A DNA stretch of 64,000 nt from Acidobacteriota bacterium (GTDB taxonomy: Bacteria > Acidobacteriota > Thermoanaerobaculia > Gp7-AA8). Position numbers and translations under genes: made by a program. The stretch spans positions 27,998-91,997 of the forward strand of contig JAJPHC010000051.1 in NCBI GenBank assembly GCA_021325515.1. The letters are read 5' to 3'. The notes beneath the pieces were generated by a model. It saw only the letters and a list, made by a program, of their open reading frames with translations. It did not search any database and had not been told where the DNA came from. Of the stretch, positions 305 through 57,147 are shown in pieces; the stretch's first letter is position 1, and every line of letters begins with the position of its first letter.

Positions 305-1669
305 ATGATTCACGAGAGCACGGACACCCTTTCGAACGCCAGCATCGACGAGCTTGTGTACACCGCCGTTTTCAGCGCGAACGCCGCGGCGAAATCGGAG
401 GCGCGCCGGCAGATTCACCTTCAGGCTCGCCACAAAGGTGCGATCTCCTCGTCGATCTATCCGCTGTACATGGCGTTCGGCCGCAATGAAGTGAAGCAGC
501 GCTTCACCGTTCCCGCGTTCAACATCCGCGCACTCACGTACGACTCCGCCCGCGCCGTCTTCCGCGCGGCGATGCGCCACAACGTCGGCGCGTTCATCTT
601 CGAGATCGCACGCTCCGAAATCGGCTACACCGAACAGCGCCCCGCCGAATACGCCGCCTGCATCCTCGCCGCAGCGATCAAGGAAGGCTACAAGGGTCCC
701 GTCTTCATCCAGGGCGATCACTTCCAGGCCAGCGCGAAGAAGTGGGTCACGGAAGAAGGAAAGGCCGCCGAGATGAAGGCGCTCGAATCGCTCATCGACG
801 AAGCCATCGCCGCCGAGTTCTACAACATCGACATCGACACCTCGACGCTCGTCGATCTCAAGTACGAGACCCGCGACGAGCAGCAGCGCGAGAACTACCT
901 CGGCACCGCACATCTGACGAAGTACATCCGCGCACGCGAGCCGAAAGGCATCACGATCTCCATCGGCGGAGAGATCGGCGAAGTCGGCAAGTACAACACG
1001 CAGCCCGACGAAGTCCGCGCCTACGTCGACGGCGTCATCCGCCACCTCGACGGCCGGACCGGCATCAGCAAGATCAGCGTGCAGACCGGAACCTCCCACG
1101 GCGGTGTCCCGCTGCCGGATGGAACGGTCGCCGAAGCGAAGATCGACTTCGATGTGCTGAAAGAAACCACGGAGATCTGCCGCCGCGAATACGGCATCGG
1201 CGGATCCGTGCAGCATGGCGCGTCCACGCTCCCCGAGTCTGTCTTCAACAAGTTCCCCGAGGCCGACGCCGTCGAGATCCATCTCGCGACCGGCTTCCAG
1301 AACATGATCCTCGACGCGAAGTCGCTGCCGCAGGAGATGAAGGACGCGATCCGCGATTTCTGCTTCGCGAACTGCCAGGACGAGCGCAAGGCCGGCGAGA
1401 CCGACGAGCAGTTCGTCTACAAGACGCGCAAGAAAGCGATCGGCCCGTTCAAGAAGCAGATGTGGGAGCTGGGCGCCGAGCACAAGGATCCGATCGTGAA
1501 GGACCTCGAGGCGAAGTTCGAGTTCCTGATGGAGAAGCTCGGCGTCTTCAACACGAAGGAGATCGTCGCGAAGTACGTCCCGGCGATCCCCGCCGATCTG
1601 CCGGAGTATCGCGAAGCCTCGGCGGAGCTGACGGCCGCGGCGACCGTCGACCCGAACGAAGGAGAATGA
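305..1669 (+). CDS. class II aldolase family protein (fructose/tagatose-bisphosphate aldolase-like, long form)
   Basis: 454 aa. TVPAFNIRALTYDSARAVFRAAM and IQGDHFQ resemble the class II FBP-aldolase PAFN and DH motifs. The 257..1738 minus ORF is antisense to it. Confidence 0.6.
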   Translation: MIHESTDTLSNASIDELVYTAVFSANAAAKSEARRQIHLQARHKGAISSSIYPLYMAFGRNEVKQRFTVPAFNIRALTYDSARAVFRAAMRHNVGAFIFEIARSEIGYTEQRPAEYAACILAAAIKEGYKGPVFIQGDHFQASAKKWVTEEGKAAEMKALESLIDEAIAAEFYNIDIDTSTLVDLKYETRDEQQRENYLGTAHLTKYIRAREPKGITISIGGEIGEVGKYNTQPDEVRAYVDGVIRHLDGRTGISKISVQTGTSHGGVPLPDGTVAEAKIDFDVLKETTEICRREYGIGGSVQHGASTLPESVFNKFPEADAVEIHLATGFQNMILDAKSLPQEMKDAIRDFCFANCQDERKAGETDEQFVYKTRKKAIGPFKKQMWELGAEHKDPIVKDLEAKFEFLMEKLGVFNTKEIVAKYVPAIPADLPEYREASAELTAAATVDPNEGE

Positions 1670-1677
1670 TGGGGAAA

Positions 1678-1765
1678 GCGAAATTGAAAATTGAAAATTG
1701 AAAATTGCGGTGGCGCTTCGCGCCACATTCATTTTCAATTTTCAATTTTCAATTTTCAATTTCGC
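1678..1765. repeat. long hairpin built from tandem AT-rich heptamers, arms about 39 bp, 3-nt loop
   Basis: gcgAAATTGAAAATTGAAAATTGAAAATTGcggtggcgc-ttc-gcgccacattCATTTTCAATTTTCAATTTTCAATTTcgc. The left arm is (AAAATTG)n and the right arm is its reverse complement, with a GC clamp at the loop. It ends 2 nt before the ATG at 1768. Confidence 0.9.
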
Positions 1766-1767
1766 AA

Positions 1768-2601
1768 ATGTCTCCTTTGACCCAGATCCTGGCGATATTC
1801 GCCATCGCCATCCTCGCCGGTTTTCTCGGCAGTCTTCTCGGCCTCGGCGGCGGGATCATCGTCGTTCCGGCGCTGACCCTGCTCTTCGGCATCGACATCC
1901 GGATGGCGATCGGCGCCTCGATCATCTCCGTCATCGCGACGTCGAGCGGCGCCGCCGCGGCGTATGTGAAGGAGCACCTCGCGAATCTGCGCGTCGCGAT
2001 GTTCCTCGAGATCGGCACGACGCTCGGCGCGATCAGCGGTGCGTACCTCGCCGGCGTGATTCACACCAGATTTCTCTTCATTCTGTTCGGTGGCCTGCTC
2101 GCCTGGTCCGCGATCGCAATGCTGAAGAAGCGCCACGAAGGTGAAGGCATCGCCAGCCCGAGCGCTCTCGCCGACCGGCTGAAGCTGCACGGCAGCTTCT
2201 ACGACGAGGCGATCGATCAACATGTTGACTATCGCGTCACGCGCCCCGGAACGGGCCTGGGCCTCATGTATCTCGCCGGCGCAGCCAGCGGGCTGCTGGG
2301 CATCGGCTCCGGCGCGCTCAAGGTCCCGGCGATGGATCTCGCGATGCGCCTGCCGATGAAGGTCTCGACGGCGACGAGCAACTTCATGATCGGCGTGACC
2401 GCCGCGGCCAGCGCGGGCCTCTACTTCGTGCGCGGCGAGATCGATCCCCTTCTCGCCGGTCCCGTCGCCACAGGCGTCCTCCTCGGTGCCACCGCCGGCT
2501 CGCGCTTCCTCGGCCGTGTGGAAAGCCGCGTCATCCGCACCGTCTTCGTCGTCGTCCTCATCGTCGTCTCTGTCGAGATGCTCGTGAAAGGACTGCGATG
2601 A
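1768..2601 (+). CDS. TauE/SafE family sulfite/anion exporter (membrane protein)
   Basis: Polytopic hydrophobic protein. Gly-rich GSLLGLGGGIIVVPAL motifs occur in both halves, as in TauE/SafE. True ATG at 1768; the ORF-track start at 1705 lies inside the hairpin. Confidence 0.75.
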   Translation: MSPLTQILAIFAIAILAGFLGSLLGLGGGIIVVPALTLLFGIDIRMAIGASIISVIATSSGAAAAYVKEHLANLRVAMFLEIGTTLGAISGAYLAGVIHTRFLFILFGGLLAWSAIAMLKKRHEGEGIASPSALADRLKLHGSFYDEAIDQHVDYRVTRPGTGLGLMYLAGAASGLLGIGSGALKVPAMDLAMRLPMKVSTATSNFMIGVTAAASAGLYFVRGEIDPLLAGPVATGVLLGATAGSRFLGRVESRVIRTVFVVVLIVVSVEMLVKGLR

Positions 2602-2939
2602 ACACCGATCTCCTCATCAGCCGGCTCCTGCGCAGCGGCGTGATCATCAGCGCGATCCTCGTCGTGATCGGGATGGGGATTGCGATCGTCCATCATCCGG
2701 CCAGCCTCATCGGCATGAAGATCCATTCGCCCCGGGAAGTCGTCCGCGCCATTCGCGATGGACACGGCCAGGGCATCGCCATGCTCGGCCTGCTGCTGCT
2801 GATCGCCACTCCGGTGATGCGCGTCGCCGTCTCGATCGCCATCTTCCTCCGCGAACGCGATTTCACATTCGTGGCGATCACCACAGCCGTCCTGCTCCTC
2901 CTGCTGCTCTCCTTCGTCCTCGGTGCAGCCAGCGGTTAG
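2598..2939 (+). CDS. DUF1634 family small membrane protein (usual partner of TauE)
   Basis: 113 aa, hydrophobic, overlaps the TauE stop by 4 nt (ATGA). TauE-DUF1634 pairs are a conserved arrangement. Confidence 0.6.
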   Translation: MNTDLLISRLLRSGVIISAILVVIGMGIAIVHHPASLIGMKIHSPREVVRAIRDGHGQGIAMLGLLLLIATPVMRVAVSIAIFLRERDFTFVAITTAVLLLLLLSFVLGAASG

Positions 2940-2971: not shown

Positions 2972-5027
<2,056 letters not shown>

Positions 5028-9583: not shown

Positions 9584-9593
9584 GCCGGCAATG

Positions 9594-9664
9594 TAGGACA
9601 GGCGCCCTCGCCTGTCCAACCGAACCGACAGGCGAGGCCGACAGGCGAGGGCGCCTGTCGTACA
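9594..9664. repeat. palindromic repeat element, family 2 (GTAGGACAGGCGCCCTCGCCTGTCC ... GACAGGCGAGGGCGCCTGTCGTAC), intergenic copy
   Basis: The two ends are reverse complements of each other and each end is itself a small hairpin. Other copies at 39309-39430 and 43115-43174. Confidence 0.85.
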
Positions 9665-9666
9665 CC

Positions 9667-9672
9667 TATAAT
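9667..9672 (+). promoter_or_regulatory. candidate -10 box (TATAAT) for cysS, possibly leaderless
   Basis: Perfect TATAAT ends 9 nt before the cysS ATG at 9682, with no room for a Shine-Dalgarno sequence. Confidence 0.3.
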
Positions 9673-9681
9673 GCGGGCCCA

Positions 9682-11091
9682 ATGTCCGAGCTTCGCCTTT
9701 TCAACACGCTGACCCGCGACAAAGACCTCTTCATTCCCCTTCACCCCGGCGAGGTGAAGATGTATTCCTGCGGGCCGACCGTCTACAACCACCCGCACAT
9801 CGGAAATCTGCGGACGTTCCTCTGGAGTGACGTCCTGCGCCGCTATCTCGAGTTCCGCGGCCTGCGCGTCACGCAGATCATGAACATCACCGATGTCGAG
9901 GACAAGATCATTCGCAACGCGAATGCGGCGGGACAGGACATCCACACCTACACCGCGCCGTACATCGAGGCGTTCCACACCGCGCTGCGCGAGCTGCGCG
10001 TGCGGCCTGCCGACTCCTATCCGCGCGCGACCGAATACATCCCGCAGATGCTCGCGCTCGTGAAGACTCTGGACGAGCGCGGCCACACCTATGTCGCCGA
10101 CGGCTCGACCTACTTCCGCGTCTCGACGCTCCCCGGCTACGGCAAGCTCTCGAAGATCGAGCTCGATGCCTCAACCGAATACGGCCGCATCGAGTCCGAC
10201 GAATACGAAAAAGAGTCGGCGCGCGATTTCGTCCTCTGGAAAGCGAAGAAAGAGGGCGAGCCGTCATGGCAGGCCGCGATCGGCGAAGGACGCCCCGGCT
10301 GGCACCTCGAGTGCTCCGCGATGTCGATGGACCTCCTCGGCGAGACCTTCGACATCCACACCGGCGCCGTCGATCTCATCTTCCCGCATCACGAGAACGA
10401 AATCGCGCAGAGCGAGGGGGCGACCGGCAAGCCGTTCGTCCGCTTCTGGATTCACGGCGAACATCTCAACATCGACCAGCAGAAGATGTCGAAGTCGCTC
10501 GGCAACATCTACACGCTCGCCGAGATCAAAGAGATGAACTACGAGCCGCTGGCGCTGCGCTATGCGCTGCTGTCGGTGCCGCACCGCACGAAGCTGAACT
10601 TCACGACGCAATCGCTCGACGATGCGAAGAGCGCACTGGCGCGCATCGACTCATTCCTCCTGCGCGTGAAGGAGCTCTCCGCTTCCGGGCCGCATGGCGC
10701 GAAGGAATCCGATGGCCACGCCGGAGAACTGATCGGCAGGTTCCTCATCGATTTCGAAGCGGCGATGGATGACGATCTGAATACCGCAGGCGCGCTCGGC
10801 GCCCTCTTCACGCTGATCCGCGACGGCAACATCGCGATGGACGCCGGACGCATCAGCGCTGCGGATGCGGAGGGAATTCACGCCGCGCTGATGAAAGTGG
10901 ATCCCGTGCTCGACATCTTCCCGAAGCGCGACGAGAACCTCGACGCCGAAATCGAAGAGCTGATCGCGCAGCGCAACGCCGCGCGCAAAGCGCGCAACTT
11001 CGCCGAGAGCGATCGCATCCGCGACCTCCTGCTGTCGAAGGACATCCTGCTCGAAGACACGCCGGGAGGGACGAGGTGGAGAAAGAAGTGA
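9682..11091 (+). CDS. cysS: cysteine--tRNA ligase
   Basis: 469 aa; CGPTVYNHPHIGN (HIGH motif) and KMSKSLGN (KMSKS motif); class I aaRS architecture of CysRS. Confidence 0.95.
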   Translation: MSELRLFNTLTRDKDLFIPLHPGEVKMYSCGPTVYNHPHIGNLRTFLWSDVLRRYLEFRGLRVTQIMNITDVEDKIIRNANAAGQDIHTYTAPYIEAFHTALRELRVRPADSYPRATEYIPQMLALVKTLDERGHTYVADGSTYFRVSTLPGYGKLSKIELDASTEYGRIESDEYEKESARDFVLWKAKKEGEPSWQAAIGEGRPGWHLECSAMSMDLLGETFDIHTGAVDLIFPHHENEIAQSEGATGKPFVRFWIHGEHLNIDQQKMSKSLGNIYTLAEIKEMNYEPLALRYALLSVPHRTKLNFTTQSLDDAKSALARIDSFLLRVKELSASGPHGAKESDGHAGELIGRFLIDFEAAMDDDLNTAGALGALFTLIRDGNIAMDAGRISAADAEGIHAALMKVDPVLDIFPKRDENLDAEIEELIAQRNAARKARNFAESDRIRDLLLSKDILLEDTPGGTRWRKK

Positions 11092-11182
11092 GGTTTCGCG
11101 GTTTCGAGGTCGCGCGGGCTCGCGGTCTCGTGGACCAAAGCCACCGCGAGCCCGCGAGCCCGCGTACCCGCGCCACCAAATC

Positions 11183-15428: not shown

Positions 15429-15926
15429 ATGAAACTGGCCGATCTGCTCCTGACGGAACTCGACCGCGAGATGAAGACGACGCGCAGGCTCGTCGAGCGC
15501 ACACCCGAAGACAAGTGGGATTTCAAGCCGCACGCGAAATCGAATTCACTCGCATGGCTCGTCAATCACGTCGTCTCTCTCGTCCGCTTTCCGAAGTTCA
15601 TCGCCGAAGGCGACGGAGTCGATCTCACGAAGTTCCCTCGACCCGTGGAACTGCGCACGCGCCGCGAGCTCCTCGAACTGCTCGACTCCAACATCGCGCA
15701 GGCGCGCGAAGCGATCGCTGCCGTGTCAGACGAGGCGATGACGCAGACCTGGACCCTCAGGATGGGTGAGCACGTGATCTTTTCCGAACAGCGATTCATG
15801 GTCTTCCGCACCTTCTTCATGAATCACCACATCCACCACCGCGCGCAGCTCGCCGTCTACTTCCGCCTCAACGACATTCCGCTCCCCGCGATGTACGGCC
15901 CCACCGCCGACGAACCGTTAAGTTGA
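15429..15926 (+). CDS. DinB/YfiT-like (DinB_2 superfamily) protein
   Basis: 165 aa from the internal ATG. DinB-family four-helix-bundle pattern with conserved His (..NHHIHHRAQL..). The ORF-track frame 14619-15428 is an upstream artefact. Stop TGA lies inside the 42-bp repeat. Confidence 0.65.
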   Translation: MKLADLLLTELDREMKTTRRLVERTPEDKWDFKPHAKSNSLAWLVNHVVSLVRFPKFIAEGDGVDLTKFPRPVELRTRRELLELLDSNIAQAREAIAAVSDEAMTQTWTLRMGEHVIFSEQRFMVFRTFFMNHHIHHRAQLAVYFRLNDIPLPAMYGPTADEPLS

Positions 15927-15959
15927 GTTTCGGGGGTCACACCTGGAAAATCAACTTAA
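15918..15959. repeat. 42-bp palindromic element family 1, copy A (TTAAGTTGAGTTTCG-GGGGTCACACCT-GGAAAATCAACTTAA)
   Basis: 14-bp terminal inverted repeats TTAAGTTGRTTTTC / GAAAAYCAACTTAA around a 13-nt core. It supplies the TGA stop of the upstream gene and ends 3 nt before the ATG of the macro gene. Confidence 0.9.
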
Positions 15960-15962
15960 CGG

Positions 15963-16460
15963 ATGCGAGTCTCCATCTTCGTCGGCGACATCGCCGGTGC
16001 ACCGGCCGACGCGCTCTGCACATCGACGAATCCCCGGCTCTCGTTGATGATGGGCACCGGCGCGAGCATTCGCGAGAAAGGCGGGTGGGACGTTCTCCGC
16101 GCGTGCGAGGCGCACGTCAAACAGCAGCCGCTGCGCGCGGGATCGGCAGTGCGGACCACCGCCGGGGCGCTGCCCTGCAAGGCGATCATCCACTGCGTCG
16201 CGAGCAATGAAGCGCACCTGACATCGCCCGCGATCATTCAGGCCTGCGTGAAGAACGCGCTGCAGCTCGCGCGCGAAGCGGATTGCAGGAGCGTGGCGAT
16301 GCCTGTATTCGGCACCGGCCACGCTCGCTTCAAATTCGATCAGGCCCTGATCGCCATCCGTGACGCACTCTCCTCCGCTCCCGAAGGAATCGAGGAAGTG
16401 CTGGTCGTCATCTACGATCCCGCGCGGGCAGAAGAGGCCGAACGCCTCCTGTTAAGTTGA
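15963..16460 (+). CDS. macro domain protein (ADP-ribose-binding / ADP-ribosyl hydrolase-like)
   Basis: 165 aa. IFVGDIAGAPADALCTSTNPRLSLMMGTGASI, AGALPCKAIIHCV and SVAMPVFGTGHARF follow the macro-domain NAAN..GGG / G.P.K.VIH / S.A.P.I.TG..G pattern. Confidence 0.7.
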   Translation: MRVSIFVGDIAGAPADALCTSTNPRLSLMMGTGASIREKGGWDVLRACEAHVKQQPLRAGSAVRTTAGALPCKAIIHCVASNEAHLTSPAIIQACVKNALQLAREADCRSVAMPVFGTGHARFKFDQALIAIRDALSSAPEGIEEVLVVIYDPARAEEAERLLLS

Positions 16461-25780: not shown

Positions 25781-25790
25781 TTGACCCACC

Positions 25791-25847
25791 AACGTCCTCC
25801 CTCGCCCCCCAACGTCCTCCCTCGCCCCCCATCGTCTCCCTCGCCGC
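25791..25847. repeat. imperfect 20-bp tandem direct repeat x about 2.8 (AACGTCCTCCCTCGCCCCCC)
   Basis: aacgtcctccctcgcccccc / aacgtcctccctcgcccccc / atcgtctccctcgccgc. It sits between the histidine-kinase stop and the MNIO operon promoter region. Confidence 0.6.
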
Positions 25848-27278: not shown

Positions 27279-27293
27279 AGGGAAAAGAAGCGA

Positions 27294-27363
27294 AACGCAG
27301 AACGCAGAACGCAGAATGAAGAATTGAGAAGAGCGCATCGCTTGAAGTCGGTTTTCATTCTGC
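27294..27363. repeat. degenerate tandem heptamers (ACGCAGA)x3-(ATGAAGA)... plus 11-bp inverted repeat CGCAGAATGAA / TTCATTCTGCG
   Basis: Fills the short intergenic gap between the response-regulator stop (27355-27357, inside the inverted repeat) and the kinase start. Same heptad flavour as the hairpins at 1678 and 57017. Confidence 0.6.
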
Positions 27364-33831: not shown

Positions 33832-35171
33832 CCGGACGGATTCTGCTCGTCGACGACGAAGACGTTTTCCGCGAAGACATCGCGTCATTGCTGCGGCACG
33901 AAGGCTACGTGTGCGAGGCCGCGGCTTCCGGCGCCGAAGCGCTGCGCATTGCACAGAGCGAGGCACCCGACATCATCCTGTCCGACATGGTGATGCCCGG
34001 GATCTCCGGCGCGGAGCTCGTGCGCACACTCGCAGCGGCATGTCCGGAGACGCCGATCGTGGTGATCACCGCGCATGCGACAGTGGAGACGACCGTCGAG
34101 GCCTTTCGCGCCGGTGCGACCGACTATCTCCTCAAGCCGCTAGTCATCGACGATCTCATTCGCAAGGTCGAGCGCTGCCTCGAGCATCGCCGGCTGCAGG
34201 CCGAGCTGCGCTTTCTGCGCAAGCAGGTCTCGCTCGCCGGAGGAGGCACGACGATCGTCGGCACGAGCCGGCCGATCCAGGCCGTGCGCGACCTGATCGC
34301 GCGCGTCGGCCCGTCGAACAGCAGCGTGTTGATCACCGGAGAGAGCGGCACCGGGAAGGAGCTCGTCGCGCGGGCGCTGCATGCTGCCGGCAGCAACGAG
34401 CGCGCGCCGTTCATCGCGGTGAACTGCGCCGCATTGCCGCGAGATCTCATCGAGAGCGAGCTGTTCGGGCACATGCGCGGCGCATTCACCGGAGCGATGC
34501 GCGACAAGCGCGGACTGTTCGAGCTTGCCAACGGCGGCACGCTCTTTCTCGATGAGCTCTGCGAGCTGCCGGTCGAGCTGCAGCCCAAGCTGCTGCGCGC
34601 GATCGAACAGCAGGAGATCCTGCCCGTCGGCGGGACGCGCGTCATCCGGACGAACGTGCGCATCATCGCGGCGACGAATCGCGTCCTGCGCGATGAGATC
34701 GCAACACGGCGCTTCCGCGAGGATCTCTATTTCCGGATTGCGGTCGTGGAGATCGCACTGCCGCCGCTGCGCGACCGACGCGAAGACATCCCGATGCTCG
34801 CCGACTTCCTCATCGCGCGCTTGAATGACCGCCTGAAGCGCCGCGTGAACGGCGTCGCCCACTCCGCGCTCCGCGTGCTGATGAGTGCACCGTGGCGCGG
34901 CAACGTGCGCGAACTGGAGAACGTGCTCGAGCGCGCGATGCTGCTGACGAACAACGAGATCATCGGCATCGAGGATCTCCCCGCCGAGCTGGCCGGCACA
35001 CTCGCGACGAGCGACCCCTCCGACGATCTGCGCAACGCCGTCCGAGCCTACGAACGGGAACACATCCGCCACGTGCTCGCAACGACGAACGGCAATCGCG
35101 AGGAAGCATCCCGAAGGCTCGGCATCGACGCCTCAACCCTCTACCGAAGAATGCGCGACCTCGCCCTTTAA
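33828..35171 (+). CDS. sigma-54-dependent response regulator (NtrC family: REC, AAA+ sigma54-activator, Fis-type HTH)
   Basis: LLVDDE receiver; GESGTGKE Walker A; GAFTGA sigma54-contact motif; ELFGH; C-terminal HTH ..NGNREEASRRLGI..TLYRRM. The stop TAA overlaps the first T of repeat copy C. Confidence 0.9.
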   Translation: MTGRILLVDDEDVFREDIASLLRHEGYVCEAAASGAEALRIAQSEAPDIILSDMVMPGISGAELVRTLAAACPETPIVVITAHATVETTVEAFRAGATDYLLKPLVIDDLIRKVERCLEHRRLQAELRFLRKQVSLAGGGTTIVGTSRPIQAVRDLIARVGPSNSSVLITGESGTGKELVARALHAAGSNERAPFIAVNCAALPRDLIESELFGHMRGAFTGAMRDKRGLFELANGGTLFLDELCELPVELQPKLLRAIEQQEILPVGGTRVIRTNVRIIAATNRVLRDEIATRRFREDLYFRIAVVEIALPPLRDRREDIPMLADFLIARLNDRLKRRVNGVAHSALRVLMSAPWRGNVRELENVLERAMLLTNNEIIGIEDLPAELAGTLATSDPSDDLRNAVRAYEREHIRHVLATTNGNREEASRRLGIDASTLYRRMRDLAL

Positions 35172-35209
35172 GTTGGTTTTCGGGGGTCACACCTGGAAAA
35201 TCAACTTAA
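35168..35209. repeat. 42-bp palindromic element family 1, copy C
   Basis: TTAAGTTGGTTTTCG-GGGGTCACACCT-GGAAAATCAACTTAA; same orientation as copy A. Confidence 0.9.
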
Positions 35210-35241
35210 CGGCGGACAGACAGGCAGGCAGAAGGCACCCG

Positions 35242-35283
35242 TTAAGTTGATTTTCCAGGTGTGACCCCCGAAAACCAACTTAA
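35242..35283. repeat. 42-bp palindromic element family 1, copy D
   Basis: TTAAGTTGATTTTCC-AGGTGTGACCCCC-GAAAACCAACTTAA; identical to copy B. Copies C and D are separated by only a 32-bp spacer with no cargo. Confidence 0.9.
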
Positions 35284-39231: not shown

Positions 39232-40848
39232 ATGAGCGAAGCCGAGCTCGAGCTGCGCGTTCAGCGCCTCGAGACCGCGCTGGCGGAGCTGACGCGCCGC
39301 GTAGACGGTGTAGGACAGGCGCCCTCGCCTGTCCACGCGCCCTCGCCTGTCCACGCGCCCTCGCCTGTCCAGGCGCCCTCGCTCCACTTCGACACGGATG
39401 CCGCGGGACAGGCGGAGGCGCCTGTCCTACAGGACTCCCCTGACTGGCTCACCCTGGCCGGCTTCTCCGTCCTCATCTTCGGCGGTGCGTATCTTCTCCG
39501 CGCCTTCACGGAGTCGGGCGTGCTGCCGCCGGTCGGCGGTGTCATCGCCGGTGCGGTGTACGCGCTCATCTGGATCTGGATCGCCGATCGCAAGCATGCG
39601 GTCTACCTCGCCGCGACCGCGGCCGCAATCGCGTTCCCGCTCGTGTGGGAGACGACGGCGCGCTTCCACTACGTGACGCCGGCGGCCGGCGGCTTCCTCG
39701 CGGCGATCATCGGCGTGATCCTCATCTTCGTCGCCTGGCACAACAGCAAGGAAGCGATCGCGTGGATTGCCAGCATCGGCTCGATCGCCGTCACGATCGC
39801 GATCGTCAAGCCGGACGCGATGCTGCCGCTCATGATCGCCGGCAGCGTCGTCGGCGCGGCAACGCTGCACGTCGCCATCCTGATGCGATGGAAGTTCGTC
39901 GCGCTCCCCGCCGCGGTCATGACCAACGCGCTTGCGTCGATGACCATCGGCATCCCGATTCTCCGCGGCGGCTTCGAGCGCCCCGGCGAAACGATCGCGG
40001 CGCTCATCGGCTTCGCCGCAGTCTGGCTCGCGACGATCTGCTATCGCCGCATTCATTACAACGAGCACCTCTCCTTCTTCGACATCATCGAGAGTGCGCT
40101 ACTGCTCTTCATCGGCGTCGGCGGCGCGGCCTTCGTCGCCGGACTGACGCATCGCTATGGCGTCATCGTCGCAACGATCTATGTGATCGCCGCGGTCGCC
40201 GCGTATCTCGAGGCGTCGAGAAAAGACGGCATGCGCACGTGGCTCACCTCGGTCGCGCTCTATCTGATCTGGCTGGCGATGCTGATCGCGCTCGAGCTGC
40301 GCGCGGCCGCCGTCATCGCTGCGATTCTCGGCGTCGCTTCGGCGGAATTCGGACGCCGCCTGCAATGGCCGGCACTCGCCGCGCAGAGCGTCCTCTGGAT
40401 CGCCGGCGCCTTCCTGATCGGCGGCTTCTCCGGCCCCGTCGCCATTCTGATCTCCGCCTGCATCCTGATCGCGTGCCTGCGTGTGCACCTGCCGCTCGCT
40501 CACACTCTGCTGCTCGCGCTCTTCGCCGTTTCGCTCTTCCTGCTTGCCGGACATGATCGCGGCGCACTCGTCCGCACGCTTCTGCTCGCCGCCTTCGCAG
40601 CAATCCTCGGATTCGGCTCGAAATACACGCATGCGGCGATTCCGGTCGCTCGCCTCCTGCTCGTCGCAGGTGGATTGAAATTACTCGCAGAGGATGTCCG
40701 CACCGAGCGCGCGGCCATCCTCGTTATCTCCTTTGCTGCCTATGGGTTCGCCATGCTCGCCGTCGCGAGATGTGCGCGCCGTCACACCACTTCGCCACTT
40801 GAGTCACAAAGAACCCCCCTCACTGACACATTAAGTAGCAATCGCTAA
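39232..40848 (+). CDS. DUF2339-like polytopic membrane protein with N-terminal coiled-coil
   Basis: MSEAELELRVQRLETALAELTRR coiled coil, then about 14 TM helices. Contains an in-frame copy of palindromic element family 2 in the linker. Confidence 0.55.
   Translation: MSEAELELRVQRLETALAELTRRVDGVGQAPSPVHAPSPVHAPSPVQAPSLHFDTDAAGQAEAPVLQDSPDWLTLAGFSVLIFGGAYLLRAFTESGVLPPVGGVIAGAVYALIWIWIADRKHAVYLAATAAAIAFPLVWETTARFHYVTPAAGGFLAAIIGVILIFVAWHNSKEAIAWIASIGSIAVTIAIVKPDAMLPLMIAGSVVGAATLHVAILMRWKFVALPAAVMTNALASMTIGIPILRGGFERPGETIAALIGFAAVWLATICYRRIHYNEHLSFFDIIESALLLFIGVGGAAFVAGLTHRYGVIVATIYVIAAVAAYLEASRKDGMRTWLTSVALYLIWLAMLIALELRAAAVIAAILGVASAEFGRRLQWPALAAQSVLWIAGAFLIGGFSGPVAILISACILIACLRVHLPLAHTLLLALFAVSLFLLAGHDRGALVRTLLLAAFAAILGFGSKYTHAAIPVARLLLVAGGLKLLAEDVRTERAAILVISFAAYGFAMLAVARCARRHTTSPLESQRTPLTDTLSSNR
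39309..39430. repeat. palindromic repeat element family 2, expanded copy (internal 18-bp unit ACGCGCCCTCGCCTGTCC x3) inside a CDS
   Basis: It translates in frame as VGQAPSPVHAPSPVHAPSPVQAPSLHFDTDAAGQAEAPVLQ. The ends are GTAGGACAGGCG... and ...GCCTGTCCTAC. Confidence 0.8.
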
Positions 40849-43060: not shown

Positions 43061-44026
43061 ATGCGAATCGAATTTGCTTGGGTCCGCGGGCTCGAGGGCC
43101 CGCGGGCTCCCGGTGTAGGACAGGCGCCCTCGCCTGTCCAATCCGCCAGTGGCAGGCGGGGGCGCCTGTCGTACACATTGCTCTTCCTGATCGTTCTGAG
43201 TGTTCCGTTGCTTGCCCAGGAGGCGGCAACGGTTCCCTCCTGCGGCGATTGTCACGACGAACAGGCCAAGGCCTTCATCACCAATCCCCACGGTCACGGC
43301 AAAGCTGTCAATGGTGTGATTCCCAATGCCGTCTGCGAAAAGTGCCATGGCGACGGCAAGGGCCACATCGAAGGCGGCGGCGACAAGAGTCTCATCTACA
43401 AACCGGCCGGAATGGCAGGCTCGAACAAGACCTGCCTTACCTGCCACGACCTCAATAACGATCGCGTGTCGCGTCATGCCGGCACTCATGCGAACTCTCC
43501 GGCGGTGAACTGCCTCACCTGTCATTCGGTTCACTCCGCGAAAGCATCACCGCTGCTCGTCAAGAAGCAGCTCGAGCTCTGTGCGAACTGCCACGCGACT
43601 CAGGTCGCCTCCTTCCGCGACAAGCCCTACGCGCATCGCCTCGGCCGCGGCGGCATGGAGTGCAGTTCCTGTCACGAGCCGCACGGACGTCCGCAGCGCG
43701 AGATGCTGCGCAAGACCACGGCGGGCGAGCTCCCCTGCGTTGGCTGCCACGTGCAGCAGCGCGGGCCATTCGTCTTCCAGCACGGCTCCGCGGCGATCGG
43801 CGACTGCATGACGTGCCATGAGCCGCACGGCTCTGCGAATCCGAAGCGCCTCATTCGCGCGACGGTCACGCAGCTCTGCATCGAGTGCCATTCGCCCATC
43901 GAAGGCAACACACTCGGCTCACAGCCGCCGGCGTTCCACAACCTCTCTCTGTCGCGCTACCAGAGCTGCACGACCTGCCATACCGCGGTCCACGGCTCCA
44001 ATCGCGACCCGCAGTTGTTCAAATGA
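43061..44026 (+). CDS. MtrA/DmsE-like periplasmic decaheme c-type cytochrome (10 x CxxCH in 321 aa)
   Basis: GGAGG 6 nt before the ATG. CGDCH, CEKCH, CLTCH, CLTCH, CANCH, CSSCH, CVGCH, CMTCH, CIECH, CTTCH. The size and haem density match MtrA. The signal-peptide n-region is interrupted by a family-2 palindromic element. Confidence 0.75.
   Translation: MRIEFAWVRGLEGPRAPGVGQAPSPVQSASGRRGRLSYTLLFLIVLSVPLLAQEAATVPSCGDCHDEQAKAFITNPHGHGKAVNGVIPNAVCEKCHGDGKGHIEGGGDKSLIYKPAGMAGSNKTCLTCHDLNNDRVSRHAGTHANSPAVNCLTCHSVHSAKASPLLVKKQLELCANCHATQVASFRDKPYAHRLGRGGMECSSCHEPHGRPQREMLRKTTAGELPCVGCHVQQRGPFVFQHGSAAIGDCMTCHEPHGSANPKRLIRATVTQLCIECHSPIEGNTLGSQPPAFHNLSLSRYQSCTTCHTAVHGSNRDPQLFK
43115..43174. repeat. 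palindromic repeat element family 2, short copy, in-frame inside the MtrA-like signal peptide
   Basis: GTAGGACAGGCGCCCTCGCCTGTCCAATCCGCCAGTGGCAGGCGGGGGCGCCTGTCGTAC, translated VGQAPSPVQSASGRRGRLSYT immediately before the hydrophobic core LLFLIVLSVPLLA. Confidence 0.8.
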
Positions 44027-56177: not shown

Positions 56178-56906
56178 CTAAGCGGTGAGCAGCTCTGCCT
56201 GCTGCCTGCTGGCTGTTGCCGGCTGTCTGTCGTCCAGGCGGCCGTCGCGAATGCGGACGACGCGCTCGGCGCGCGCGATCAGCGACGGGTCGTGGGTCGA
56301 AAAGACGAACGTGCAGTTCGTCGCGGTGTTGATCTCCGCGAGCAGATCGAGAATGTGCGCGGCGGTTTCCGAATCGAGATTCGCCGTCGGCTCGTCGGCG
56401 AGGACGAGCTTCGGCTCGGTCACCATCGCGCGGGCGATCGCGACGCGCTGGCGCTGTCCGCCGGAAAGCTGATCAGGGCGCTGCTTCGCCTGATCCGCGA
56501 GCCCCACCTGCGCAAGCCAGCGGCGGACGCGCAGGTCGCGGTCGCGGCGCGGCATGTTCTGCAACAGCAGCGGGTACTCGACATTCTCATAGGCGGTGAG
56601 AACCGGAATGAGGTTGAAGGTCTGGAAGATGAAGCCGAGCGTGTCGCGGCGAAGCGATGCGAGGCGGTGCAGCGGAATCGCGGTCACGTCGGCGTCGTCG
56701 ATGACGATGCGCCCCTGATCCGGCTTGTCGATGCAGCCGATGAGATTGAGCAGCGTGGTCTTGCCGCTGCCCGAGGGACCGGCCAGCGCGATGAGCTCGC
56801 CGCGCGCGATCGTCAGATCGATCGCGTGCAGCGCCTGCACCCGCAGCCGCCCCAGCGGGTAACTCTTGCTCACGCTCTTCAGCGTGATGACGTCGTTGGA
56901 AGGCAT
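56178..56906 (-). CDS. ABC transporter ATP-binding protein (LolD/MacB-NBD-like)
   Basis: Start MPSNDVITLKSV; Walker A GPSGSGKTT; Q-loop; signature LSGGQRQRVAIARA; Walker B LVLADEPT. Confidence 0.9.
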   Translation of the reverse strand: MPSNDVITLKSVSKSYPLGRLRVQALHAIDLTIARGELIALAGPSGSGKTTLLNLIGCIDKPDQGRIVIDDADVTAIPLHRLASLRRDTLGFIFQTFNLIPVLTAYENVEYPLLLQNMPRRDRDLRVRRWLAQVGLADQAKQRPDQLSGGQRQRVAIARAMVTEPKLVLADEPTANLDSETAAHILDLLAEINTATNCTFVFSTHDPSLIARAERVVRIRDGRLDDRQPATASRQQAELLTA

Positions 56907-57016
56907 GTGTCGTCTCCTTGCACGCGTAATGTAAGGACGCGAGGGCGGCAGCACATGTGCGGAAAGGAGGGCGAAGGAACCATGACTTCTGGCAGGGGTG
57001 TTTCTACTCAGCGAGT

Positions 57017-57147
57017 CAAAAGCGAAATGCAGAATTCAGAATCACAGAATTCAGAATGAAGAATGGAAGCTCGAACAGTGCAGCGGGCGTGTCATTCCAT
57101 TCTTCATTCTGAATTCTGTGATTCTGAATTCTGAATTTTGCTTTTCG
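57017..57147. repeat. long perfect hairpin of tandem heptamers (CAGAATN)n: arms 57030-57068 and 57095-57133 are exact reverse complements (39 bp), 26-nt loop
   Basis: cagaattcagaatcacagaattcagaatgaagaatggaa ... ttccattcttcattctgaattctgtgattctgaattctg. It lies in the 300-bp divergent intergenic region between the ABC ATPase gene and ppk2. Confidence 0.9.

Follow-up and report, generated by a model that had tools for sequence, protein, structure and literature searches.

The 64,000-nucleotide (nt) stretch of Acidobacteriota DNA analysed here (the window) carries near its left end three consecutive genes, for a class II fructose-bisphosphate aldolase-like protein, a TauE/SafE-family membrane protein and a DUF1634 protein (Table 1). 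The spacer between the first two is occupied by a long hairpin, E1, whose arms consist of tandem heptanucleotides. An earlier reading of the letters alone (the sequence-only reading) had placed this palindrome after the aldolase stop (1669) and directly before the TauE ATG (1768), and the coordinates confirm that placement.

Table 1. Coordinates of E1, its parts, the flanking genes and other periodic elements of the window.
Feature	Position	Strand	Description and evidence
Class II fructose-bisphosphate aldolase-like gene, 454 aa	305..1669	+	Pfam PF01116, E = 1.3e-15
CGAAGGAGA, including the Shine-Dalgarno-like AAGGAG (1659-1664)	1657..1665	+	Predicted outer helix with 1771-1779
Hairpin E1	1678-1765		Between aldolase stop and TauE ATG; repeat finder, Tandem Repeats Finder and RNA fold
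E1 head motif AAAGCGAAAT	1675..1684	+	Mirror copy ATTTCGC at 1759-1765
E1 5' arm	1678..1707	+	GCG, then (AAATTGA) x 3.9
E1 central GC clamp hairpin, GTGGCGC-TTC-GCGCCAC = GTGGCGCTTCGCGCCAC	1710..1726	+	Terminator-like together with tail 1727-1736
Extra heptad ATTCATTTT	1727..1735	+	Unpaired, 3' side; RNA fold
E1 3' arm	1736..1765	+	(CAATTTT) x 4, then CGC; ends 2 nt 5' of the TauE ATG
TauE/SafE-family membrane protein gene, 277 aa	1768..2601	+	Pfam PF01925, E = 7.8e-52
DUF1634 gene	2598..2939	+	Overlaps TauE stop; third of the aldolase-TauE-DUF1634 run
8-base periodic-arm hairpin, GGGCTCGC units	11097..11172		Fills the cysS-to-ruvA spacer; orthologous to L003 13480-13557
E2	27288..27363		AAGCGAAAC + GCAGAAC x 3, GAAGAAT and more; partner arm 10 nt only
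E3	57018..57145		51-nt arms, AAAAGCGAAAT + GCAGAAT/TCAGAAT/GAAGAAT heptads

The spacer and the start codon (1670-1770) read tggggaaaGCGAAATTGAAAATTGAAAATTGAAAATTGcgGTGGCGCttcGCGCCACattcattttCAATTTTCAATTTTCAATTTTCAATTTCGCaaATG. Tandem Repeats Finder (TRF) detects two period-7 arrays here, at 1681-1707 (3.9 copies) and 1731-1762 (4.6 copies), both with a 100 per cent match, and the 30-nt arms of the inverted repeat (1678-1707 and 1736-1765) are 100 per cent complementary. The predicted RNA fold consists of a 30-bp stem, an internal loop with 2 nt facing 9 nt, a 7-bp GC clamp and a UUC loop, so that the continuous 39-bp arm of the sequence-only reading becomes 37 paired positions divided between stem and clamp. 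The internal loop is asymmetric, with one heptad more in the 3' arm than in the 5' arm; this surplus of about one unit lets the helix shift its register by 7 nt (two registers are predicted). The minimum free energy (MFE) of E1 is -56.6 kcal/mol, compared to -28.0 +/- 3.6 kcal/mol for 200 dinucleotide shuffles (z = -7.97), and no shuffle folds as well, which, together with the perfect heptamer arrays, bears out the description of the palindrome as highly non-random. The GC content of the window is 63.5 per cent, below the 65-70 per cent assumed for the genome, and four of its seven stretches at 34 per cent GC or less are the arms of E1 and of the hairpin at 57018-57145. A search of the whole window against Rfam at gathering thresholds gave 0 hits, and at E <= 1 it gave no bacterial family, only eukaryotic microRNA-precursor models (22-33 bits against thresholds of 64-184).

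Two further elements of the window, E2 and E3, begin as E1 does. All three start with AAGCGAAA(T/C), followed by NNAGAAT-type heptads (TGAAAAT in E1). The three occurrences of this 9-mer on the plus strand of the window are E1, E2 and E3, and among 2.2 Mb of other loci the 9-mer followed by heptads was found in the sister genome only. E3 lies in the divergent spacer between genes for an ATP-binding cassette (ABC) ATPase (minus strand) and PPK2 (plus strand); its arms are 96 per cent complementary and fold at -104 kcal/mol (z = -11.8). E2 lies between the stop of a response-regulator gene (27355) and the ATG of a histidine-kinase gene (27283), both on the minus strand; as a hairpin it was rejected (z = -1.1, not significant), and it is better called a one-armed copy. 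The sequence-only reading had joined E1 with the sites at 57017-57147 and 27294-27363 in a small family of heptad-repeat hairpins. The sites are real and have the head and heptads in common, the second of them is not a significant hairpin, and scans of relatives show the family to be much larger and more varied than supposed.

The head AAAGCGAAAT recurs at 27288 and 57020 of the window and, in the sister genome, at position 1288 of locus L171 and positions 2923 and 4330 of locus L172, always with heptads after it. One of these sister-genome copies (L171 1287-1395) occupies the spacer between the PPK2 and radical SAM genes, which is empty in the window. The sister genome's orthologue of E3 is broken up by other DNA, and its centre, TGTGGCGCTTCGCGCGTC, is the same as that of E1. 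E1 therefore shares its head and NNAGAAT-type heptads with at least four other loci in the source and sister genomes, and its centre with one copy. Family copies occur in both orientations, and the inverted ends AAAGCGAAAT...ATTTCGCTTT are present in E1, E3 and L171 1287-1395 and partially in E2 and L172. A second family, with AGACAGC units, is found at three junctions in relatives (L006 2661, L172 1777 and L174 8576), and the lineage carries several heptad units, among them AGACAGC, AACGATG and TGAGTGC, in spacers and gene ends.

To compare the same junction in related genomes, we fetched aldolase-TauE junctions through TauE homologues. Two loci with TauE at 91 per cent identity, L003 (from the sister genome) and L004, carry the AAAATTG unit of E1 in five copies instead of four. 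At 84 per cent TauE identity, L007 has a GC-rich hairpin of GAGTGGTC 8-mers (-74 kcal/mol) that ends 1 nt 5' of the ATG, and L170 has a hairpin of ATAGAGN 7-mers (-58 kcal/mol) that ends at the ATG. L006 and L168 (TauE identities of 84 and 83 per cent) are without a spacer, the aldolase stop and the TauE GTG overlapping as GTGA. All four junction hairpins fold at z-scores of -7.4 to -8.6. At the foot of the spacer, L003 and L007 have GAGTAGTCG in common, and L003, L007 and L170 have TCGA(A)TGAC, which suggests one old junction element whose repeat units turned over, rather than three separate insertions. Loss of the L170 spacer by deletion from the stop TGA to the TGA of A-TGA-C would leave GAGTGAC with an in-frame GTG. 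Two broad scans, with TauE in genome contigs and with the aldolase in metagenomes, listed matches of at most 71 and 80 per cent identity, respectively; among these there was no further aldolase-TauE junction, and the loci served as a 2-Mb background set.

Differences accumulate even between very similar sequences. The DNA of L170 and L006 is 94-95 per cent identical, yet the whole aldolase-TauE hairpin is present in one and absent from the other. At the DUF1493-DUF5670 junction the two loci also differ by a 114-nt hairpin whose arms have an 8-nt period, and at the BtpA/cysS junction by one 7-nt unit in hairpin length. The unit at the latter junction is AACGATG in L006 and AAGGATG in L007, both arms being altered in concert, and copy numbers between relatives differ as four versus five and five versus six units. 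The centre of E1 is itself flipped: the window has GGTGGCGC-TTC-GCGCCACAT, whereas the sister genome (L003) has ATGACGCGC-GAA-GCGCCACC, the window's GTGGCGC-TTC-GCGCCAC-AT corresponding to ATGACGCGC-GAA-GCGCCAC in L003. The L003 centre is the reverse complement, exact over 19 nt, of the centre of the L172 copy from the same genome. The clamp is weak or gone in the orthologous hairpins, with a 4-bp centre in L003 and none in L007 and L170. The element is thus real and has homologous copies elsewhere, and its unit, copy number, loop orientation and presence vary while the arms stay complementary. E1 is not a conserved riboregulator: among close relatives it is gained, lost or replaced, with the overall layout kept.

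We interpret E1 as a member of a dispersed family of palindromic heptanucleotide repeats that is specific to this lineage and carries the head AAAGCGAAAT, an acidobacterial counterpart of the hairpins formed by short tandemly repeated repetitive (STRR) sequences in cyanobacteria (probability roughly 0.6). At the DNA level, slipped-strand mispairing would lengthen and shorten the arms 7 nt at a time. The arms would be kept identical by recombination between them, or by template switching, and the loop would be flipped in the same way, loop inversion being an expected product of either process. Whole elements could be lost by deletion between flanking short direct repeats (TGA...TGA).

The cyanobacterial model for this interpretation is an STRR hairpin of 7-bp units between hupS and hupL, a hairpin of unknown function for which roles in transcript stability or translational coupling have been proposed (PMC2670836). 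E1 resembles it in having tandem 7-nt units and in forming an intergenic hairpin between cistrons of one operon, and its units are dispersed, with several per genome (E1, E2 and E3). The hosts differ from the heterocystous cyanobacteria of the original description, being Acidobacteriota-like metagenome-assembled genomes (MAGs), probably of Thermoanaerobaculia; the palindromic form is the rule here, and the copies have a conserved head and sometimes a conserved centre. Unit turnover, loop flip and presence or absence at orthologous sites are documented here in addition. E1 fits the heptamer-repeat kind in all but host.

Heptameric simple sequence repeats (SSRs) are over-represented in bacterial intergenic DNA, for example GGGAATC in Xanthomonas and GGGGA(T/C)T in Nostoc; at a given gene pair, the arrays of close relatives differ strongly in both length and sequence, and some are inverted repeats (PMC4692102). 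The over-representation and the idea of polymerase slippage were put forward in a 2007 survey, as cited in PMC4692102. Intergenic arrays with strong variation are likewise found here, and one locus (L034) carries CGGGGTT/CGGGATT units. Unlike those arrays, the unit of E1 is AT-rich and allows no G-quadruplex, and the hairpin arrangement, occasional there, is dominant here. Another known case is that of the TAACTGA arrays of Beggiatoaceae, cyanobacteria and Bacteroidetes, which end a few nt from start codons without a Shine-Dalgarno (SD) sequence and show 7-nt indels between strains (PMC4679880). They consist of one fixed unit in direct repeats without predicted structure, whereas units of the E1 type vary and are paired into long hairpins. 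One-armed, pyrimidine-rich heptad arrays directly 5' of starts, which resemble the TAACTGA direct repeats, were also observed: TTTCTGG x 4 at L003 2265-2295 and CTGCGTT x 3 at 27294-27316 of the window. A search of the literature found nothing on such elements in Thermoanaerobaculia, an absence that is no proof of novelty.

Much of the same evidence could be accommodated if E1 were a non-autonomous element, similar to a miniature inverted-repeat transposable element (MITE) or a doublet of repetitive extragenic palindromic (REP) sequences (REPIN), that is moved in trans by a transposase reading the AAAGCGAAAT ends or the hairpin, with the heptads being secondary. The inverted ends are conserved, the centre recurs in one other copy, and copies, which occur in both orientations, are present at four or more loci of two sister genomes, with one spacer that is occupied in one of these genomes and vacant in its sister; a locus of a relative also includes a Y1 transposase gene (L174 3109-3555). 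However, no clear target-site duplication is seen in the sites compared, no parent element with these ends is present among the loci examined (which are less than a whole genome), and the palindrome flanking the L174 transposase gene is a different, non-periodic one. Moreover, the junctions of distant relatives have unrelated units on a common base, which in-place turnover fits better than repeated insertion does. We regard mobilization of this kind as possible, though well short of an even chance; it overlaps with the reading of E1 as a dispersed heptad repeat, from which it differs solely in how the copies spread.

REP-type elements are known to affect the stability of mRNA 3' ends. REP sequences, bacterial interspersed mosaic elements (BIMEs) and REPINs are summarized in PMC3733652 and PMC3116915 as abundant, multi-copy intergenic palindromes that occur in both orientations and form hairpins of about 100 nt. 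We rejected an assignment of E1 to them: REP sequences are headed by GTAG or CGTC and are not internally periodic, whereas E1 lacks that head and has AAAGCGAAAT instead. Classical REP-type doublets are present in the window as a separate family, namely the GTAG-headed palindrome (T)GTAGGACAGGCGCCCTCGCCTGTCC in inverted pairs at 9592-9664, 39309-39431 and 43113-43176, with tandem 18-mers at 39319-39382. In the BtpA/cysS spacer, the window has such a GTAG-headed doublet; L003 has another palindrome there, and both L006 and L007 have heptad hairpins. The cysS-to-ruvA spacer, filled in the window by an 8-base periodic hairpin (Table 1), has an unrelated palindrome, TTAGTTCATCCCGAGCGTAGCGAGGGATC..., in L006 and L170. 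The Y1 transposase gene of L174 (PF01797) stands beside a hairpin with 54-nt non-periodic arms (3604-3735) and is possibly a REP-associated tyrosine transposase (RAYT) with its REP-type partner.

In a scan of 2.13 Mb for hairpins with periodic arms of at least 20 nt and loops of at most 60 nt, period 7 was the most frequent (22 hairpins), followed by period 8 (six hairpins) and periods 6, 9 and 10 (one each). By approximate hand tallies of hairpin counts and locus lengths, which were not scripted, close relatives (about 190 kb) have about 1 per 9 kb, compared with about 1 per 30 kb in the remaining loci that bear an Acidobacteriota or Thermoanaerobaculia label and about 1 per 500 kb in other phyla, where about 1 Mb yielded two periodic hairpins in all. 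Hand curation of a noisy flank scan assigned twelve periodic hairpins to stop-to-start spacers that they fill to within about 10 nt on either side (17 nt in one case), and others sit in divergent or convergent spacers. Their units often have a GAR core every 7 nt (NNNGAAN or NNNGAGT).

Several observations weigh against the reading of E1 as a dispersed repeat copy. The hairpins often finish 0-11 nt from a start codon. G exceeds C in the 5' arm of 28 hairpins, is exceeded by C in 2 and equals it in 3 (binomial p ~1e-6, with fewer independent cases than this count, since some hairpins are related). A palindrome has the same sequence on either strand, and the excess is therefore a true strand-polarity rule. 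Both features hint at selection or a directional mechanism, and a purely passive model does not explain them. Filled and empty sites (L170/L006 and L171/window) show no clear target-site duplication: the comparison of L170 with L006 gives TGA...TGA at one site and 2-4 nt of microhomology at the other, and the L171/window boundaries are blurred. Furthermore, every statement about expression made below is a prediction from folding, and the helix predicted outside E1 is significant in the window only, 12-32 per cent of shuffles being as good in L003, L007 and L170. The polarity would fit selection during transcription, if one may guess, with a C-rich first arm serving as a Rho loading site and a C-rich second arm being paired as it emerges.

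These features raise the question of whether the hairpins are adaptive spacers for structure-bridged coupling, that is, self-folding sequences that part overlapping genes and keep stop and start near each other in space. The twelve hairpins that fill stop-to-start spacers, downstream genes without an SD in the linear sequence, the ribosome-masking calculation described below and the coupling proposed for STRR hairpins are all in keeping with such a role. On the other hand, elements also occupy divergent and convergent spacers, relatives manage with a plain GTGA overlap, and where genomes are compact, whatever is inserted into a short spacer would give the same appearance; we consider an adaptive spacer unlikely. 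A broader proposal would make the hairpins a self-homogenizing class with its own rules (rewriting of both arms, loop flips, a G-rich and C-poor first arm), serving throughout the lineage as self-folding stop/start spacers, with SD-less genes translated by reinitiation across the base; we find it similarly doubtful.

The GAR core, the polarity of the 5' arm and the single-arm pyrimidine-rich arrays right before starts (E2; L003 2265-2295) might alternatively mark a binding-site array for a protein that reads 7-nt units, for example an RNA-bound protein of the cold-shock-domain or S1-like type, or else a regulator that binds DNA. In the case of the TAACTGA repeats, whose function is unexplained, an arrangement of one cold-shock protein (CSP) per heptamer has been mentioned (PMC4679880). 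Since the units differ wholly between loci and between orthologous sites and are base-paired in the hairpin form, and no candidate protein was identified, we judge such an array to be very improbable.

The order aldolase-TauE-DUF1634 is kept in L003, L006, L007 and L168, and co-transcription is expected from this order and from the GTGA overlap in L006 and L168; the aldolase-TauE overlap in relatives argues for one operon. A promoter inside the repeats was considered and rejected, there being one weak pattern match only, on the minus strand and toward the aldolase gene, which the repeat unit accounts for. Around the junction (1650-1800), the predicted MFE is -62.5 kcal/mol at 37 C, and AUG 1768-1770 falls within a small internal loop that separates the main stem from an outer helix. 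Freeing the region from -12 to +12 around the AUG is predicted to cost about +16 kcal/mol, in agreement with the suggestion of the sequence-only reading that the entire TauE ribosome-binding region is sequestered. The same reading saw no SD outside the hairpin. However, the final codons of the aldolase gene (AAC GAA GGA GAA TGA, with the stop at 1667-1669) contain the SD-like AAGGAG, just 5' of E1 and 13 nt before the foot of the stem; the AUG lies 2 nt after the foot, and TauE is without an SD in the linear sequence.

When the stop-codon region is masked as by a terminating ribosome, the predicted unpaired probability of the AUG region rises to 0.7-0.8. An occluded AUG, the SD-less TauE start and its opening under a terminating ribosome lead us to expect that TauE is translated mainly by coupling to aldolase translation. 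In this scheme, the very stable stem-loop in the aldolase-TauE-DUF1634 transcript would disfavour independent 30S binding at the TauE AUG, the stem would bring the aldolase stop and AAGGAG to within about 10-15 nt of the AUG through space, and the terminating ribosome would unwind the outer helix together with the lowest part of the stem. The outer-helix duplex amounts to -13.2 kcal/mol in the window, with 2 per cent of shuffles as good. As it is not significant in relatives and is similar in those without the hairpin, it is likely to be mostly compositional, and for the same reasons we rejected the idea that the palindrome has spread into the flanking coding sequence (the aldolase 3' end paired with the first TauE codons).

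Split ribosome-binding sites bridged by a short hairpin are known from phage T4 genes 38 and 25. There, as at E1, an SD-like sequence and the start codon are drawn together by the hairpin that lies between them, a resemblance in mechanism only; unlike those short hairpins, E1 bridges 88 nt and leaves a long residual path of about 15 nt from SD to AUG. Located just after the upstream stop, E1 also resembles the intercistronic stem-loops of operons subject to selective RNA processing and stabilization, as presented in PMC4423207 and PMC8219983, and it would be expected, as they are, to protect the upstream segment and to set the product ratio. Those stem-loops are gene-specific and evolve with the gene, whereas E1 is a copy from a repeat family, replaceable and dispensable in relatives. 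The stem-loop may stabilize the 3' end of the aldolase segment or terminate transcription partially. We would regard all such effects on expression as by-products that selection tolerates, with no dedicated sensor involved.

The sequence-only reading had offered two dedicated functions for E1, of which the first is a Rho-independent-like terminator with an unusually long A/U stem. In an intrinsic terminator of the aldolase transcript, the clamp and a U-rich tail would dislodge RNA polymerase, and the heptads would serve as the extended A/U tracts of a bidirectional terminator. The simple pattern is indeed there, since GTGGCGC-TTC-GCGCCAC provides a 7-bp stem with 6 GC pairs and a 3-nt loop followed by the tail ATTCATTTTC, and the reverse strand likewise has the clamp and then a T-rich heptad tract. 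Yet pattern matches in the region are fewer than in shuffles (2 vs 4.1), and the U tract, with 5-6 U in 10, is discontinuous and pairs along its whole length with the 5' arm. In the orthologous hairpins the centre is reduced to 4 bp (L003), or clamp and U tract are missing altogether (L007 and L170). Nor does E1 appear to lie at the end of a transcription unit, given the 4-nt gene overlap in L006 and L168, the conserved gene order and the likely operon. A dedicated terminator is therefore improbable in our estimation; termination is possible as a side effect only.

The second proposal was an RNA thermometer or translational switch, in which the AU-rich stem would melt to free the TauE start. 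The start region is occluded and the arms are AU-rich, as such a switch would need. Known RNA thermometers, however, are short, imperfect helices of a few kcal/mol, whereas E1 combines 30 perfect pairs with a clamp. Its main stem is predicted to stay paired from 15 to 85 C, with the unpaired probability of 1756-1770 steady at 0.48-0.53 throughout. In addition, a thermometer of the ROSE or fourU type would have its SD paired within the helix, but the 3' arm contains no SD, the sole SD-like sequence (1659-1664) being 5' of the hairpin, and the orthologous hairpin is GC-rich in L007 and absent from L006 and L168, the element having been replaced or lost in relatives. We give the thermometer next to no credence.

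Other repeats in the window and its relatives were recorded as well. A perfect 45-nt inverted repeat, TTAAGTTGGTTTTCGGGGGTCACACCTGGAAAATCAACTTAACGG, occupies 35168-35283; each of its arms is itself a small palindrome, a related motif lies at 15913-15964, and its 26-nt loop contains AGACAGC/CAGGCAG-type heptads (GACAGACAGGCAGGCAGAAGG). Degenerate CTGCCTG-type heptads at 56195-56229 lie within the final codons of the ABC ATPase gene (56178-56954, minus strand; tail ...RQPATASRQQAELLTA), and the orthologous end in L174 (8576-8657) is a full AGACAGC hairpin through which the gene call runs, so that repeat arms appear to have been absorbed into coding ends. TATAAT is found 8-10 nt 5' of the cysS ATG, right after a palindrome, in the window (9650-9685), L006 (13533-13552) and L170 (3787-3806), which suggests that the cysS mRNA may be leaderless or have a very short leader. 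Just downstream of the histidine kinase gene, the 20-mer CCCCCCAACGTCCTCCCTCG is repeated in tandem 3.1 times (25785-25845; TRF score of 101).

The TauE start at 1768 is the start called for an identical 277-aa database protein (P0001), and an exact database look-up with the aldolase protein gave no match. Among named homologues, those nearest to TauE and PPK2 belong to Thermoanaerobaculia or Acidobacteriota MAGs, and the clade is probably Thermoanaerobaculia. When DUF1634 and PPK2 were looked up, the only matches were short Logan contigs from SRR5581483 that break off at hairpins or close to them. Logan short-read contigs also start or stop in or beside hairpins at L002 (from window position 57104), L005 (in the 3' arm of an L003-type hairpin) and L173, indicating that the elements break assemblies.

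The comparison removes a tempting but wrong annotation of the junction as a thermosensor or dedicated terminator. Elements of this kind mislead the calling of start codons and small open reading frames, which can run through them, and they can be mistaken for riboregulators. Orthologous junctions that are empty, filled or filled with another unit constitute a natural series on how palindromes persist, how their arms stay identical and how translation proceeds behind a 30-bp stem. What remains of interest is evolutionary: arms that stay perfect despite unit turnover, the loop flip, presence or absence at 95 per cent identity and the G-rich-first polarity. In this uncultured acidobacterial lineage, a large share of the intergenic DNA consists of heptad palindromes, which turn over faster than the neighbouring genes.

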